Source: a virus (Duplodnaviria; Heunggongvirae; Uroviricota; Caudoviricetes). From it: a DNA stretch of 23,647 bases. The position numbers and the translations under genes were made by a program. Within the stretch, counting starts at the first letter, position 1; each line of letters opens with the position of its first letter. The stretch lies in IMG/VR virus record IMGVR_UViG_2537561691_000015, one strand, 5' to 3'. The notes beneath the pieces are model-generated. The model searched no databases and was not told the origin of the DNA. It saw only the letters and a list, made by a program, of their open reading frames with translations. Below are positions 4,597-10,801 of the stretch, piece by piece.

Positions 4597-4986
4597 ATGA
4601 TTGACGCTCATGACTTCACAAGATGGGTGCGCACACAGGACACCCGTCTGGCTCCCGTTCTTCAGGGATTATTTGATCTCTACATCCGTAGTCGTGACAA
4701 CAGAGCACGCACTACAAAACCGGAGAATGCAGACACCCTTTATTTCACAGTAGACGACTGCTACCGCGTGGACTTAACACCACACGGGCTGGCGTTGCGC
4801 TGCCTGACACCGCATGGCGAATCACTGCTGGCGTATTACGACTCCCCGACCTCCGTATTTGCGGCAATGCTGGCGCATCACACTGCTGGCGGGTGTGCCT
4901 CGCTGAGTGAATACACCGCTGAATTTAACCGCCTTTCCACCCTCTTCTCGCAGGAGTGGCAGCGCGTGACGGGATACCAGCCATGA
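4597..4986 (+). CDS. Hypothetical early-operon protein immediately upstream of the replication gene
   Basis: 129 aa; its stop overlaps the ATG of gene A (ATGA). Confidence 0.5.
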   Translation: MIDAHDFTRWVRTQDTRLAPVLQGLFDLYIRSRDNRARTTKPENADTLYFTVDDCYRVDLTPHGLALRCLTPHGESLLAYYDSPTSVFAAMLAHHTAGGCASLSEYTAEFNRLSTLFSQEWQRVTGYQP

Positions 4987-7748
4987 GTGAGTTTGCATGG
5001 AGCTGGAATGAACCACGGCCAGCCATTGATCCGGACAGATTTACGGAGCGCAGGCAGGAAACTGAAACCGAGCTGCAACGCGCCATCCGTTACTACCTTG
5101 AGGCGGACAAAAAGGCCCGTAAAGAACAGGAAGCGAAGGAGGAAGCCTTTTTCGCACAATCCACCGTGGGTAAAAAACTCATGGCATCCCTTGAGGAAGC
5201 CGGACAGCGTGAAAAGCTGGCACAAAGCATCATCAGCAAGCGTCAGGCAACAGAACAAGACCCGGTGGCCCGTGCTTTTGCCACACTGAAGGTGCTTCCC
5301 GTTTATCTGCGTGAACCTCTGAGCCGCCACCTCTCTTTCCTGCGCAAAAAACAGGAATCCGATCGTCAGAAAGGCAAAAAGAGCTGGCAGGCTGAACGCT
5401 ACGCGCGCGGAACCCTGCGCAAAATATTCGTACGTCTGGACCGCACCGACAGCCGTTGGCTGACACCGGGTTATCGGTCCCTTGCCGGACGTGAACGCCT
5501 GGACGATTTGCTTTACCTGCCGCAACTCAACAAACACCAGATACAGACGCTGGCCACCATGACGGCGGCGATGTTCAGCAGCACCTTCGAAAAACTCTGC
5601 GATGGTTTTGGCGCGACCGATGGCGAGCTGACCATGGATGTAACGCTGAAGGCGTATCAGATGCTGGCCCGCATGGCGTTACACTTGCACGCCATGCCTC
5701 CGCATTATGACGCACTGACAACAGACAAAGACCGGAGGAACGAACCGGACACAGAACTGCTGCCGGGCGCAATCCTTCGCCTGACCTGTGCGGAATGGTG
5801 GAAACGCAAACTGTGGCTGTTACGTTGCGAGTGGAGAGAAGAACAACTCCGCGCCGCCTGTCTGGTTTCCAGAAAAACATCGCCCTATTTGAGCCAGGAC
5901 GCGTTAAGCGAGTTTCGCGCACAGCGCGAGAAAACACGCGATTTCCTGAAAAGTTTCATGCTGGAAAACGAAGACGGGTTCACGATTGATCTCGAGACGG
6001 TGTATTACGCGGGAGTAAGTAACCCGGTTCACCGTAAGGCAGAAATGATGGCCACCATGAAGGGGCTGGAACTTCTGGCCGAAGCCCGTGGCGACAAAGC
6101 GGTGTTTCTGACTGTCACCTGCCCGTCAAAATACCACGCCACAACAGAGAACGGTCATCCGAATCCCAAATGGAACGGGGCCACCATGCGCGACTCCAGC
6201 GATTACCTGGTTAACACGTTTTTTGCGGCGGTCCGCAAAAAACTGAACCGCGACGGTCTTCGCTGGTATGGCATCCGCACGGTGGAGCCTCACCATGACG
6301 GCACCGTGCACTGGCATATGATGGTCTTTGCTCATCCGGAAGAAATCGACAGCATCGTGGCCATCACCCGCGATATTGCCATTCAGGAAGACCGCCACGA
6401 GCTGGGCAATGATATTACTCCGCGCTTTAAGGCGGAGTATGTCGACGGCTCAAAAGGCACACCAACCAGCTATATCGCGACCTACATCGGAAAGAACCTG
6501 GACAGCCGCGCCGTGGATGGCATCGACCCGAAAACGGGCAAGCCACGCGTTGACCACGAAACCGGAAAATCAATGGCCGAGAGTGTGGAGCGCGCCATCG
6601 GCTGGGCGCGCCTTCATCGGGTCCGCCAGTTCCAGTTCTTTGGCATCCCCTCCCGTCAGGTGTGGCGTGAACTGCGCCGCCTTGCCAGCCAGATGGCACG
6701 CAACCCGGAAGGCCCGCAACGACTGAAAGATGACGCAATGGATGCGGTACTCGCTGCCGCCGATGCCGGGTGTTTTGCCACCTACATTGAAAAACAGGGC
6801 GGCGTACTTGTTCCACGCAAAGACTACCTGATTCGCACCGCCTACGACCTCGCAGATGAGCTGAATGATTACGGCGAACAGAGCGTACAGATTTACGGGA
6901 TCTGGTCACCACTCATCGGGGAATCCTCCCGTGTGTGCACGCATCCGGATAACTGGAAACTGGTAAGACGTAAACCGGAAACGGAAGACAGCGCCCGCGA
7001 AAATGGTTTTGACCTTCAGGGCGGCCCTGCCGCCCCTTGGACTCGTGGCAATAACTGTCCCCGTGTACAGGAAACGGACAACAACGGGACAGAACAGCCG
7101 GAAGAACGGCCAGCACCGTGGCCGCGGCTTCCTGAAGGCGTTGACGTGAATGAATGGATGCGCTCACTGAAACGGCACGAACGCCGGGCACTGATGCGTT
7201 CGCTGCGTGACAAACAGGCAAAAAACAGCAGTGATGAAATGCAGAACTGGACACAGAGCCGCAAACAGCCACAGCCTTTGCCTGATAACCACGAGTTACT
7301 CGCTAAAGAATGGCGGGAGGCTGCTGAATCTCTCGGCCTGCATATCGGTGAACAGCAGATGCAGCACCTGTTACGAGGCGGCAGTCTGTACGTTGGCGGC
7401 AGCATCATTGCACCGCAGGGATTTGAAATTGTACGCAAACAGGATACCCGCCCGGACAGCCGAATCACGCAGCTCTGGCAACGCCTGAGTCGTAATCACG
7501 GCGTAAGCAGCACGGAGATCCGCCATAACCCGGTCGCCAGCTATCTGGAACAACTAGAGGCATCAGACCCTGAAGCCGCCGCACGCCTGGCATCCACACT
7601 TCAGCAAGACCAGAACACCATGAAAACACCCGTTACCGTACTTTCTGACATGCTGCGCGCCATCCGCGACGCAGAGCACGCACAGAGAATCAGTGAAACC
7701 ACTAAACATGCTCGCAAAAAAATCAGTTTATTGCATCGAACACGATAG
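4983..7748 (+). CDS. A: Rolling-circle replication initiation endonuclease (P2 gpA family)
   Basis: 921 aa from ATG 4983 (the track's 4956 start is GTG); HUH-type motif 'VEPHHDGTVHWHMMVF' closely matches my recollection of P2 A; last gene of early operon as in P2. Confidence 0.9.
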   Translation: MSEFAWSWNEPRPAIDPDRFTERRQETETELQRAIRYYLEADKKARKEQEAKEEAFFAQSTVGKKLMASLEEAGQREKLAQSIISKRQATEQDPVARAFATLKVLPVYLREPLSRHLSFLRKKQESDRQKGKKSWQAERYARGTLRKIFVRLDRTDSRWLTPGYRSLAGRERLDDLLYLPQLNKHQIQTLATMTAAMFSSTFEKLCDGFGATDGELTMDVTLKAYQMLARMALHLHAMPPHYDALTTDKDRRNEPDTELLPGAILRLTCAEWWKRKLWLLRCEWREEQLRAACLVSRKTSPYLSQDALSEFRAQREKTRDFLKSFMLENEDGFTIDLETVYYAGVSNPVHRKAEMMATMKGLELLAEARGDKAVFLTVTCPSKYHATTENGHPNPKWNGATMRDSSDYLVNTFFAAVRKKLNRDGLRWYGIRTVEPHHDGTVHWHMMVFAHPEEIDSIVAITRDIAIQEDRHELGNDITPRFKAEYVDGSKGTPTSYIATYIGKNLDSRAVDGIDPKTGKPRVDHETGKSMAESVERAIGWARLHRVRQFQFFGIPSRQVWRELRRLASQMARNPEGPQRLKDDAMDAVLAAADAGCFATYIEKQGGVLVPRKDYLIRTAYDLADELNDYGEQSVQIYGIWSPLIGESSRVCTHPDNWKLVRRKPETEDSARENGFDLQGGPAAPWTRGNNCPRVQETDNNGTEQPEERPAPWPRLPEGVDVNEWMRSLKRHERRALMRSLRDKQAKNSSDEMQNWTQSRKQPQPLPDNHELLAKEWREAAESLGLHIGEQQMQHLLRGGSLYVGGSIIAPQGFEIVRKQDTRPDSRITQLWQRLSRNHGVSSTEIRHNPVASYLEQLEASDPEAAARLASTLQQDQNTMKTPVTVLSDMLRAIRDAEHAQRISETTKHARKKISLLHRTR

Positions 7749-7793
7749 AAATATAGAGCTAAGGCCGCCCTAGGAATAAGGAGGCCTTGAAAA

Positions 7794-8603
7794 TCAACCT
7801 ATCTTCTTATGAAGTAAAATTAATTTCTGTATTAATTTGGAATGAAACATTGATATATCAGAAATTCTTATTTCATTAGGCGAGTCTATATGATTGGAAA
7901 CTTCTTCCTCCAAGGAGTCACAAATACTTTCTAGATTTTCAATATCTGCATTTAATTCTGGAAAACTATTAAACAAATATAATGAATCCCGTAACTCTCC
8001 TAGTTTTGGTAAAAGAGTATTACTGAATACACTAAGAAACTCCTCTTCTGATAATGCCATGGAGTTTTTAAAACTTTGCACAACATCGAATGCCAACCCA
8101 TTAATTTTAGGCATAATTACTTCTCTTACCCAATACCCTTCATTAATAGCTTCTTTACGTTCTTTTCTATGTTGAACACAAGGAATAACAAAGGATGAAA
8201 CTAAAGCAAATAAAGAGATGCCAATAGAAATCCACTCTGGACCATTTTCCGGAACCTTTACAATATTATATATATCATAGGAATTTGGAACATCTTTGAA
8301 ATAATTAGCAAATAAATCTTTTTTGTTATCCCTTGCCAGAGATAACTTATGAAAGGTGTCGTTTGCCTTTTCACAAAACATCAAGCCATCATTCGGGTTT
8401 CCGGATAACAAAAACGGTGATGATATACCACTAAGTCCTGAATCGGAAATATAAAAAGGCGTGTTTGGATAAAGTGATTCATTACATTCAATGTTTTCTT
8501 TATTGGAAAAATCTGTCACAGAGCAAGCTGCGGGGAATATAAAAAAAATGACAGACAGCGCTGTCATTTTGATTTGAAAAATATTTTTAAAAGAAGGGAA
8601 CAT
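7794..8603 (-). CDS. Membrane protein with N-terminal signal peptide and one internal transmembrane helix (third gene of cargo operon)
   Basis: 269 aa; N-terminal 'KNIFQIKMTALSVIFFIFPAACS' signal-like; TM 'WISIGISLFALVSSFVIPCV'; AAGGAG RBS; overlaps upstream gene by 17 nt; AT-rich codon usage. Confidence 0.6.
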   Translation of the reverse strand: MFPSFKNIFQIKMTALSVIFFIFPAACSVTDFSNKENIECNESLYPNTPFYISDSGLSGISSPFLLSGNPNDGLMFCEKANDTFHKLSLARDNKKDLFANYFKDVPNSYDIYNIVKVPENGPEWISIGISLFALVSSFVIPCVQHRKERKEAINEGYWVREVIMPKINGLAFDVVQSFKNSMALSEEEFLSVFSNTLLPKLGELRDSLYLFNSFPELNADIENLESICDSLEEEVSNHIDSPNEIRISDISMFHSKLIQKLILLHKKIG

Positions 8604-8931
8604 TTTTATGTAAGCCTCTCCTTACAGCTCTATCTAATTCAGAAAGCATACCTTCTTTATATTCACGACCATCAAGTACAGTGCGACTATAAAATTCGCT
8701 AGGCGAAGAAAATTTCGGCAAAACCGTTTCAAGCATACCTAGAAAGTATGAGCTTGATACAACAATTCCCTTGGGGATCAATAGATATAATCTATCATTA
8801 CTGGTTGTGCAAAATTTCCCTATATTAAAGTAATCATAGGCCTGGCGCCCATTAGAACGTCCAGCAAAAAGTTTCTTGTTACTATCTTTTACTAACTTAT
8901 TGAAATCTATGGTGATGTCAGCCATTTTCAT
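8587..8931 (-). CDS. Small STAS-like (anti-sigma-antagonist / DUF4325-like) protein, second gene of cargo operon
   Basis: 114 aa; 'IDF...GIVVSSSYFLGMLETVL' resembles the SpoIIAA/STAS phospho-serine region; starts 10 nt after gene-1 stop with a GAGGA RBS; family call from memory only. Confidence 0.55.
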   Translation of the reverse strand: MKMADITIDFNKLVKDSNKKLFAGRSNGRQAYDYFNIGKFCTTSNDRLYLLIPKGIVVSSSYFLGMLETVLPKFSSPSEFYSRTVLDGREYKEGMLSELDRAVRRGLHKNVPFF

Positions 8932-8941
8932 GTACCTGTCC

Positions 8942-10321
8942 TCAAGTTCGCTGGGTGGCGTTTTCTGGTAGAGGAAAACGAATATTGATCATAACTCCAG
9001 GAAATCGAGCATCCTTCATACGCTTAAGATAGTTGCGATCCGGTTCAGATTCAAGCCCTACATCATTAAAAGGGTAAGTAAAAATGTCACTTTCCTCGTC
9101 ATTAACCAACCTTTGCTTTAATTTATATGATCCATCAAAGTTAATATGAGTACTACCAGATATTAAAGTCATTTTTATCCCACCTTTAATATCTCTTCCC
9201 ATTTTTTTAAGATTATCATGCATATCTTGAAATAACTTCAATAATTCAATTGTTCCGGTGCCAGAACTGTCAGTTTCTTTCTCGTTTTTACAACTCACCC
9301 GCCCTTGCAAGGCCGCTACTGTTGTTAATCCTTCCTTAAACATACCCTTTTTCTTAATATGCTTATTTATGTATGGATTAACTTGTTGACTTAATGAAAA
9401 ATGATCCTCAGGTAAATTATCAAAAGTTTCGCTGATAGTTTTCCCAAAATTGAAAACAGCCAACTCACATATGGGGTTTCGTACGTTATTATTAACAAAA
9501 CCTCTCAAATACCAGCGTGGGCGTTGCTCTAACCCACAATGCCGCTCCGCATTATCAAGGAGTTCCCCCATGCAGGAAGTTAAATGCTTTTCTGCCTCAT
9601 GTACAAGTTTTAAATTATGATCATTTAAGCATTCGTTTATGTATGCGGTAAATTTTTCAGCAGTGACATTTTTTCTGTCATGGGCAAAGGCAGAAGCATT
9701 CTCCTTTCCGATACTATCAGCAGAGAAGATTCGTTTCTTCGGATTCGCTTTTTTCGATGCTTCAGTAGAGTCCAGAACTTTACCTGGTGCAGCATTACTA
9801 ATCTCTTTTACAAGCCCGACATCCCTGATAATTTCAAGATACTGTTCATCTTTAGGGTAGATACCATTAATCTGAATCATCGTATCTTTGAAATTTATAT
9901 TACTTTGCCTTGCTGCTGTAAGAGCAACACCTAATAGACACTCAAGACCAAGACAGTGTTTTTTGTTTTTCTTGTAATCAAAAATATATGATTTCCATTT
10001 ACCTCTTGCAATTAATTTTGTGGCTGCACTAATAAATAGCAGAGATTTCTCTGGATTGTCATATAAGTCAAAATATTTAGGTATTAATATCTTCTCTGCG
10101 TCACGACGAAGAATTGATGAGTCATACTCTTTTATAATCGATATATTTTCAATGAACGTAGCGACTTGGTTTTGGACAGGAGTTGTTTCATCGGAAAAAC
10201 GAAGACTACCATTTTTCTCTTGCGCAGGCTTTTTTTTCTTAGCTCTCTCAACGCTACGAAGAAATCGCAACCATCCACGTAAAAAGGTTCTTTTAGAATC
10301 TTCTTTATTGATTTTTTTCAT
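8942..10321 (-). CDS. GHKL/HATPase_c-like ATPase-domain protein (SpoIIAB/RsbW-type N-box), first gene of cargo operon
   Basis: 459 aa from ATG 10321 (the track's 10417 start is TTG and lies inside phased repeats); N-box-like 'GELLDNAERH' (E-x3-N-A-x2-H) and G2-like 'DSSGTGTIELL' in the C-terminal half; N-terminal ~230 aa basic region of unknown function; AT-rich. Confidence 0.6.
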   Translation of the reverse strand: MKKINKEDSKRTFLRGWLRFLRSVERAKKKKPAQEKNGSLRFSDETTPVQNQVATFIENISIIKEYDSSILRRDAEKILIPKYFDLYDNPEKSLLFISAATKLIARGKWKSYIFDYKKNKKHCLGLECLLGVALTAARQSNINFKDTMIQINGIYPKDEQYLEIIRDVGLVKEISNAAPGKVLDSTEASKKANPKKRIFSADSIGKENASAFAHDRKNVTAEKFTAYINECLNDHNLKLVHEAEKHLTSCMGELLDNAERHCGLEQRPRWYLRGFVNNNVRNPICELAVFNFGKTISETFDNLPEDHFSLSQQVNPYINKHIKKKGMFKEGLTTVAALQGRVSCKNEKETDSSGTGTIELLKLFQDMHDNLKKMGRDIKGGIKMTLISGSTHINFDGSYKLKQRLVNDEESDIFTYPFNDVGLESEPDRNYLKRMKDARFPGVMINIRFPLPENATQRT

Positions 10322-10400
10322 TTCCAAATGTTCCTGCAAAGTTAACGTAGCCCACAAGGCGCTAAGTATACTTTCTGCTATATTTTTTTCACTATACAAA

Positions 10401-10427
10401 TGCACAATAGTGCACAAATTTGCACAA
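10401..10427. promoter_or_regulatory. Three helically phased direct repeats TGCACAA (starts 10401, 10411, 10421) upstream of the cargo operon; candidate operator/activator site
   Basis: Seen directly; exact 10-bp periodicity; on the operon strand they read TTGTGCA and sit just upstream of -10-like TATAGT and TATACT hexamers. Confidence 0.4.
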
Positions 10428-10801
10428 TTTTTTTGAACGACTTTTTGCCCTTCCGGCCCGCATGGTGGCTGGATCCGTCAAGGATCCGTGCGTGCACAAA
10501 AAAACGCATTTTTTCTGCGCGCAGGTGACGGGGGAACAGCCCGCGTTTCAGGGGGTAAATAGCATCCCCTGAACGATGTCGCAGCGACACAACAGAATGG
10601 CTGTATTTCTCACGCTGAGCGTGAAAAAGACGTGAGGGCTTTTGATTTGATGGGGTGAAAGGTAAGGCCGTCAAAATCGCACTGAGACGGCGAGAACATG
10701 CAGTCAACGCGGTGGGATTGCGTAAGAGTCTGACTGTCGATGATGGCAATCAGCAGGAAAGCGTCGTGAAATTATCTGACTGATACAGGAGCTGGAGAGT
10801 C

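Follow-up and report, generated by a model that had tools for sequence, protein, structure and literature searches.

A STAS-GHKL protein in a three-gene operon of the P2-like prophage defence hotspot, and its possible role as a partner-switching kinase

What kind of protein is encoded by the gene at positions 8942-10321 of the viral DNA record IMGVR_UViG_2537561691_000015 (IMG/VR; Caudoviricetes), and what does it do for the prophage that carries it? The gene, here called gene A, lies on the minus strand of a stretch of 23,647 nucleotides (nt), which was analysed as a whole and is referred to as the window. A preliminary description, made from the sequence alone, had noticed motifs of SpoIIAB/RsbW-type anti-sigma kinases in it. 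We found that gene A encodes a STAS-like domain followed by a GHKL domain, and that it is the first of three closely spaced genes (A, B and C; Table 1) that occur in the same order in distantly related bacteria. Our confidence in the domain assignments of gene A, and in the three genes forming one functional unit, is high. By a small measure only, we lean towards gene A being the kinase of a three-gene prophage partner-switching module, probably an anti-phage one that works in the manner of abortive infection or a toxin-antitoxin system.

Partner switching between GHKL kinases and STAS proteins is a classic mode of bacterial signalling, known from sporulation and the general stress response. 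It was tied to phage immunity first in 2026, through the CapKS and VapKSC systems (Chambers et al., EMBO J 2026, PMC13373217).

The STAS-like and GHKL folds of gene A

The longest reading frame at this position extends from 8942 to 10417 on the minus strand and opens with a TTG codon. Starting instead from the ATG at 10321 yields a protein of 459 amino acids (aa), which is the start used in RefSeq and agrees with the conserved MKK start of the homologues. The segment GELLDNAERH fits the N-box pattern E-x3-N-A-x2-H, for which 0.003 matches are expected by chance in a protein of this size and composition. E253, N257 and H261 of this segment are invariant among the 77 gene A homologues aligned (mean column identity 28%), as are G354 and G356 of the segment DSSGTGTIELL, while T357 is kept in 75 of them. 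The latter segment lies at the N-terminus of helix 356-373 in the predicted structure. The preliminary description had proposed the two segments as an N-box and a G2-like box, and both proposals are borne out. Its characterisation of the N-terminal ~230 residues as lysine-rich is also accurate (13.5% lysine versus 8.3% in the remainder); residues 1-40 comprise 22.5% lysine and 12.5% arginine, and the basic pattern of the N-terminal helix is conserved in a narrower alignment of homologues.

No Pfam, NCBIfam or PADLOC model matched gene A, and sequence and profile searches against the PDB returned nothing; the folds emerged from structure comparison only. An AlphaFold2 model (43 homologues; predicted local distance difference test score of 83.8, predicted template modelling score of 0.83) contains a STAS-like fold and a Bergerat GHKL fold, and its best match is SpoIIAB, which aligns over its own full length. 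The earlier remark that the N-terminal half carries no recognisable motif is therefore fair at the level of sequence, given that no family model matches, but structure comparison places a STAS-like domain there, behind a basic helix. Positions conserved within this domain are P81, F84, D115/H116, D123-L-x-A-E127, G153 and G169. In the GHKL part of the model the N-box lies on helix 241-262, the G1 box comes directly after strand 284-292, and a long lid (residues 296-350) leads to the G2 box, which sits at the lid end; the chain stops at the final strand of the fold. The N-box and the G1 position align to the corresponding motifs of VapK and of a protein from P4-hotspot system #69 (both described below). 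The model thus supports the suggestion, made in the preliminary description, of a sensor or effector domain fused to a regulatory kinase or ATPase.

The same comparison makes it extremely improbable that gene A acts on phage DNA as a GHKL ATPase of the MORC, MutL or topoisomerase type. Matches of this type cover only the shared ATP-binding core (~110-130 residues), whereas the best structural match is the minimal kinase SpoIIAB over its full length. Because gene A ends at the last strand of the GHKL fold, no transducer (S5-fold) domain or nuclease follows it, and the partner of gene A is a STAS-like protein, as in kinase systems. We rejected this assignment on the missing transducer domain and the full-length SpoIIAB match.

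The lid carries a family-specific motif, TVAALQGRVSCK, in which T334, A337, L338, Q339 and S343 are nearly invariant over the 77 homologues. Written out for the family, T334-V-x-A337-L338-Q339-x-x-V-S343-x-K345 directly precedes R353-G-x-G-T; position 353 is serine in the gene A of the window and arginine in 70 of 77 relatives. The motif could conceivably serve in substrate docking, or S343 could be a site of autophosphorylation.

A profile search of 1.84 billion representative sequences recovered 1,178 gene A family proteins at E<=1e-3, of which 563 remain at E<=1e-30. Among the 150 best matches listed, most are 400-500 aa long and matched over almost their whole length. Pfam barely touches this family: the HATPase_c_2 and STAS models match a few members, all below threshold, and HATPase_c_2 matches three of the 77 aligned members (best E 0.007) and not the gene A of the window.

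Genes B and C and the conserved operon

The gaps and overlaps between the three genes range from -17 to +11 nt. To establish how far this arrangement extends, distant homologues were looked up and one genome per species was scanned with the narrower gene A alignment. All 23 usable loci show the same order: gene A comes first, a B-like gene second, and the third gene encodes a short protein that has a transmembrane helix; three apparent exceptions were settled by hand. These loci come from Enterobacterales, Vibrio, Aeromonas, Idiomarina, Pseudoalteromonas, Roseateles, several Alphaproteobacteria and a Bacteroidetes metagenome-assembled genome (MAG). No PP2C phosphatase or sigma factor gene was found in the operon of the window, where A, B and C alone lie between gpA and the portal gene, or in the other contexts seen.

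Gene B encodes a small alpha/beta protein; the RefSeq version (WP_000763711.1) begins two codons later than our 114-aa call. Direct searches with Pfam, NCBIfam and PADLOC assigned it to no family, and against Pfam, including PF14213 (DUF4325), it gave no match at E<=1. DUF4325 is nonetheless the top Pfam family among its relatives, matching two of 23 (best E 4.4e-4, below threshold). No helix-turn-helix (HTH) domain was found in the 114-aa protein. Across the wide gene B family Ser61 is the sole invariant serine or threonine, and 23 diverse homologues all share G24, G28, S61 and G65. S60 and S61 align with S48 of VapS and with the phospho-serine region of TM1081. Ser61 is the candidate phospho-acceptor.

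Gene C encodes a protein with a lipobox-type signal peptide and a single transmembrane helix. In its homologues the lipobox follows the canonical pattern L/I-[TS]-[AG]-C; a lipobox combined with a downstream transmembrane helix is an unusual topology. W158, V162 and P165 of the basic juxtamembrane motif RKERKEAINEGYWVREVIMPK are invariant in the homologue alignment, and the helical domain of ~105 residues that comes after it is conserved (mean column identity 0.72) and is placed in the cytoplasm by the positive-inside rule. The exposed segment of ~90 residues between the signal peptide and the transmembrane helix (residues 28-118, positions 8250-8522) has a mean column identity of 0.47, compared with 0.72-0.78 elsewhere in the protein, and is absent from the operons of Erwinia, Alphaproteobacteria and Bacteroidetes. 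The C proteins of Gamma- and Betaproteobacteria are homologous (jackhmmer E down to 1e-23); those of Alphaproteobacteria and Bacteroidetes consist of an N-terminal transmembrane helix, a basic stretch and a helical domain. Pfam, NCBIfam and PADLOC assigned gene C to no family. A PIN domain match was not found in it, the weak coiled-coil and helical-bundle matches of its profile to the PDB were discarded as noise, and a match to PADLOC model PDC-S02 was not significant (E 0.031).

The features of gene C would also suit a sensor. Its exposed periplasmic lipoprotein part might detect events at the envelope, for instance a phage adsorbing or injecting its DNA, and signal through the membrane to B and A, with the kinase output of A directed at some host or phage target. 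The enterobacterial protein does have a signal peptide with a lipobox and a fast-varying periplasmic segment of the kind expected of a sensing surface in an arms race, and Pfam, PADLOC and PDB profile searches revealed no recognisable toxic domain in it. The C proteins of Alphaproteobacteria, Bacteroidetes and some Enterobacterales (such as that of the Erwinia locus), however, have only the N-terminal transmembrane helix and no periplasmic part, so the exposed part is dispensable for the core function, and no other output domain (nuclease, HTH or NADase) was found in A or B. In CBASS, Pycsar and retron systems, moreover, the terminal effector is often a short protein with one transmembrane helix. 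Rousset et al. 2022 (Cell Host Microbe, PMC9122126) validated defence systems whose proteins have one to three transmembrane helices. We therefore consider a sensor role for gene C unlikely, and treat it below as the putative effector of a partner-switching module.

The window derives from an Escherichia coli P2-like prophage, and the 3.2 kb tested are 100% identical to strain WS1933D. The A-B-C island has a GC content of 35-38%, against 53-58% in its surroundings, and is flanked by gpA, the replication endonuclease gene, and the portal gene. In P2-like phages, the stretch from gpA to gpQ is a defence hotspot, known for old and tin (PMC9122126). The full island is present in 23 of 5,426 complete E. 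coli genomes, always between the replication endonuclease and portal genes. Elsewhere, A-B-C adjoins a type I restriction-modification (R-M) system and AAA_15 proteins in Vibrio, lies beside type III R-M systems and integrases on metagenomic contigs, and in Aeromonas occurs in a prophage with a methylase and SRA-HNH, NERD and HipA proteins. A distant version (A 463 aa, B 107 aa, C 202 aa) occupies positions 8001-10340 of locus L003, between the CI repressor and integrase genes of another P2-like prophage, which indicates that A-B-C moves between two hotspots of P2-like phages. These neighbourhoods are typical of defence islands.

Prophage cargo can also have other purposes, and A-B-C could be an accessory module for lysogeny or induction control, for stress response or for addiction (a toxin-antitoxin cassette). 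The P2 hotspot also carries partition systems and a cytolethal distending toxin, according to the hotspot survey (PMC9122126), Chambers et al. stress the fuzzy line between stress response and immunity (PMC13373217), and the PADLOC search was empty. Against a purpose other than defence stand the recurrence of the operon beside R-M systems, AAA_15/OLD-like ATPases and HNH, NERD and HipA proteins, its presence in two P2-type hotspots, the protection conferred by its family relative VapKSC, and the sister P4 hotspot, where unknown genes protected in six of eight random tests. On this evidence a non-defensive role is quite unlikely, and a role in defence is the one we favour.

Two observations concern where gene A has been deposited. 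A tblastn search with gene A against 50,697 deposited phage genomes (INPHARED) found no relative, yet the gene is present in the 23 complete E. coli genomes and the survey of Rousset et al. counts 155 loci in P2 prophages. A contig of 3147 bp (DEQA01000158.1), deposited as part of the Planococcaceae (Firmicutes) MAG UBA3378, carries a gene A 100% identical to that of the window, together with the same B and an almost identical C. In all likelihood it is a piece of an E. coli prophage that was binned wrongly.

Relation to known systems and a proposed mechanism

The system has been catalogued before. System #19 in Table S5B of Rousset et al. 2022 (PMC9122126), found 155 times in the P2 hotspot and labelled HATPase_c and DUF4325, is this very system, its proteins 1 and 2 being identical to A and B and its protein 3 differing from C at two residues. 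The table gives protein 3 a signal peptide, by Phobius, and one transmembrane helix, and its DUF4325 label is based on HHpred. The entry is a catalogue listing that does not mention the STAS domain of protein 1 and gives no mechanism. The closest characterised relatives, described in 2026, differ from this system in output, trigger residue and nucleotide pocket. A full-text literature search found no mention of WP_000723541.1, WP_000763711.1 or WP_001548207.1, and no other paper on DUF4325 in a defence setting. A second entry in the same study, P4-hotspot system #69 (Table S1B), has the same two labels, lists two proteins and has a canonical G1 box (DLGVG). With hhalign, the gene A family matches its protein 1 at a probability of 85% (E 6.5e-6), making it a clearer homologue of gene A than VapK is. 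We also considered Rst_3HP (hp + hp + hp) of E. coli E1114, which protects against phage P1 and likewise consists of three unannotated genes in the gpA-gpQ hotspot (PMC9122126). On inspection, its three proteins (Table S2A) are unrelated in sequence to A, B and C, and identity with this system was rejected.

In the work of Chambers et al. (PMC13373217), single-stranded DNA (ssDNA) activates CapK, an HTH-STAS-GHKL protein, which phosphorylates Ser54 of CapS, a STAS repressor with a winged HTH (wHTH). In the related vapKSC operon, which protects against phage Bas42, the proposal is that VapK modifies VapS, a DUF4325 protein, by phosphorylation at Ser48 and thereby releases the PIN toxin VapC. 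We took the VapK and VapS sequences from the supplementary model file of that paper and used VapK for comparing gene A with the CapK and VapK kinases. Gene A and VapK share phrog_3364 (E 2.4e-7 over residues 75-453 of gene A; E 3.6e-38 for VapK). An hhalign comparison of the gene A family with VapK is colinear through the STAS domain, the N-box and the G1 box, yet weak (E 0.039); a plain hidden Markov model (HMM) alignment extends the pairing to the last strand, where FPGxxIxI is matched to FEGTILNI.

The resemblance to VapKSC extends to the whole operon. Both consist of a kinase gene, a gene for a small STAS-like protein and a third gene, in this order and in defence neighbourhoods; gene A, like VapK, has a STAS domain directly ahead of a SpoIIAB-like GHKL domain in one chain, and gene B, like VapS, is ~115 aa long with a conserved serine at the start of helix 2. 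The third gene encodes a membrane protein with a signal peptide and one transmembrane helix here and a PIN nuclease in VapKSC. Gene A is ~160 aa longer than VapK (an N-terminal extension of ~70 residues with the basic helix, the long lid insert and extra strands) and has asparagine where the G1 box of VapK has aspartate, and gene B lacks the Pfam DUF4325 match that VapS gives at E 2.7e-17. With CapK and CapS the system shares a STAS-GHKL kinase gene directly followed by the gene of a STAS-type substrate (gene B being the candidate substrate), the N-box asparagine (N218, essential in CapK; N257 in gene A) and an additional N-terminal element ahead of the STAS domain, which is an HTH in CapK and a single basic helix in gene A. 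CapS, however, has a wHTH and represses a downstream immune operon, whereas gene B has no DNA-binding domain and nothing resembling an immune operon follows apart from gene C, and residue conservation lends no support to activation of gene A by ssDNA. Given the shared phrog_3364, the weak VapK alignment, the longer chain, the basic helix in place of an HTH and the asparagine in the G1 box, gene A is, judged by its sequence, a remote relative of the CapK and VapK kinases that falls outside both described groups. It differs from SpoIIAB/SpoIIAA and RsbW/RsbV in that STAS domain and kinase are fused in one chain, the G1 aspartate is absent, no sigma factor or PP2C phosphatase is encoded at the locus, and the setting is a prophage hotspot and not a developmental or stress regulon.

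By analogy with VapKSC, the module could work as follows. In an uninfected lysogen, C (or A) would be kept inactive in a complex with B. On infection, the N-terminal and STAS part of A would sense a cue derived from the phage and so turn on the kinase, which would then phosphorylate B on Ser61 or the adjacent Ser60. Phosphorylated B would let go, now binding the C cytoplasmic domain (or A) differently, and freed C would damage or depolarise the inner membrane, stopping the infected cell and aborting the infection. The absence of a phosphatase gene in or beside the operon agrees with a suicidal switch that turns one way only, as in VapKSC. We hold each of these steps (the trigger, kinase activity, B as its substrate, C as effector, and defence itself) with less confidence than the domain assignments and the unity of the three genes.

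Several results weigh against this proposal. The G1 position that normally holds the adenine-binding aspartate, and that aligns to the aspartate of DFGVG in VapK and of DLGVG in system #69, is asparagine in 68 of the 77 gene A family members, serine in eight and aspartate in one, and the second G1 glycine is threonine or serine across the family, so that ATP use or kinase activity of gene A is not assured. The aromatic residue that stacks on the activating ssDNA (W68 in CapK, F54 in VapK; PMC13373217) aligns, in a weak and hence provisional alignment, with the variable K121 of gene A (N, K, E, R or T in the family), and conserved acidic residues (D115, D123 and E127) line the start of helix 2 of its STAS domain; together these suggest that the trigger probably differs from ssDNA. 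On the output side, gene C has no recognisable toxic domain, and HMM comparison detected no homology between the alphaproteobacterial and the enterobacterial C proteins, which we equate, as that link failed, by position and architecture only. As for defence, none of the three proteins has a PADLOC model, and system #19 does not appear in the table of tested systems of Rousset et al. (PMC9122126).

The altered G1 box prompts a rival reading in which the switch does not depend on catalysis. Gene A might be an ATP-binding or pseudo-GHKL protein that works by stoichiometric binding and sequesters B, the C cytoplasmic domain or some factor from phage or host, with its nucleotide state and internal STAS domain setting the choice of partner, and phosphorylation of B not being the switch. 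SpoIIAB and RsbW are themselves both binders and kinases. The canonical aspartate is replaced by asparagine or serine in 76 of 77 members, no PP2C gene in or beside the operon would reset a phospho-switch, and the acidic residues of the STAS domain of A lie where STAS substrates have their phospho-serine, so that this domain could be a built-in pseudo-substrate. It is difficult, however, to see why a non-catalytic protein should keep the Mg-binding Asn257, the catalytic-type Glu253, His261 and both G2 glycines strictly invariant, and B keeps one invariant serine at the exact site that is phosphorylated in STAS substrates. VapKSC, the nearest characterised system, also lacks a phosphatase and is nevertheless serine-dependent. 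Purely non-catalytic partner switching is thus improbable, if not negligibly so, and we retain a kinase-driven switch as the preferred reading.

It is possible, though we would not count on it, that A-B-C founds a large family (at least 1,178 clusters at 50% identity) whose STAS-GHKL kinase, with its non-canonical pocket, responds to something other than ssDNA and gates a single-pass membrane effector by phosphorylating a DUF4325-like protein. If so, it would represent a membrane-killing branch of the kinase/STAS immune switches, with the same two-protein switch driving an output of a third kind, a membrane protein, and the acidic STAS domain of A may serve as its built-in pseudo-substrate. 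The operon sits in the best-studied prophage defence hotspot, and its family comprises more than 1,000 sequence clusters with no database annotation; if it defends, it would be a widespread addition to the known repertoire and would support the kinase/STAS pair as a portable sensor module. It would also offer a tractable E. coli model of what activates such kinases without the ssDNA-binding residue, how a GHKL pocket works with asparagine in place of the adenine-binding aspartate, and how a small protein with one transmembrane helix stops an infected cell. Should it have no role in defence, it would nonetheless be a clearly delimited signalling cassette carried by a prophage.

Regulatory elements and other features of the window

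Table 1. Positions in the window of the A-B-C genes, their domains and motifs, and nearby elements.
Feature	Position	Strand	Description
Gene A	8942..10321	-	459 aa; STAS-GHKL protein; WP_000723541.1 (RefSeq label 'hypothetical protein')
Lys/Arg-rich N-terminal helix	10232..10321	-	Gene A residues 1-30 (helix 6-28 in the model)
STAS-like domain	9707..10114	-	Gene A residues ~70-205; approximate boundaries
GHKL (Bergerat-fold) kinase/ATPase domain	8966..9676	-	Gene A residues ~216-452; activity predicted
N-box GELLDNAERH	9539..9568	-	Gene A residues 252-261
G1-box position FNFGKT	9437..9454	-	Asn291 replaces canonical Asp; G293 invariant
ATP-lid insert	9272..9436	-	Gene A residues 296-350; family-specific motif TVAALQGRVSCK
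G2 box DSSGTGTIELL	9239..9271	-	Gene A residues 351-361
Gene B	8587..8931	-	114 aa; small alpha/beta DUF4325/STAS-like protein; starts 11 nt past the gene A stop
Ser59-Ser60-Ser61 of gene B	8749..8757	-	N-terminus of helix 60-67
Gene C	7794..8603	-	269-aa membrane protein; WP_001548207.1; start overlaps the gene B end by 17 nt
Signal peptide of gene C	8523..8603	-	Residues 1-27; lipobox-like ..AAC|S
Transmembrane helix of gene C	8169..8234	-	Single; residues 124-145
Basic juxtamembrane motif of gene C	8106..8168	-	RKERKEAINEGYWVREVIMPK; residues 146-166; followed by the cytoplasmic helical domain
Three TTGTGCA direct repeats	10401..10427	-	10-bp spacing; ~80-105 nt upstream of the gene A start
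Terminator-like hairpin	7754..7773	-	Directly past the gene C stop

The direct repeats upstream of gene A overlap an inverted repeat, GTGCACAAATTTGCAC (10410-10425), and a further TTGTGCA copy lies at 10493-10499. The repeats could be an operator or promoter element of the A-B-C operon; a promoter scan was uninformative (eight sites versus 9.4 expected).

The window contains a second low-GC (38-41%) cargo island, on the minus strand at 1008-2035, between the integrase gene (1-1002) and an HTH repressor-like gene (2051-2455). It encodes a DUF2511 protein (1008-1355) and an unannotated protein of 216 aa (1385-2035), for neither of which PADLOC gave a match, and it occupies the same position as the A-B-C operon in the L003 prophage. 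The gpA reading frame of the window (4956-7748) encodes 930 aa from its first GTG and 915 aa in RefSeq, and ends 46 nt ahead of the low-GC island; it is presumably longer than the gpA of phage P2.

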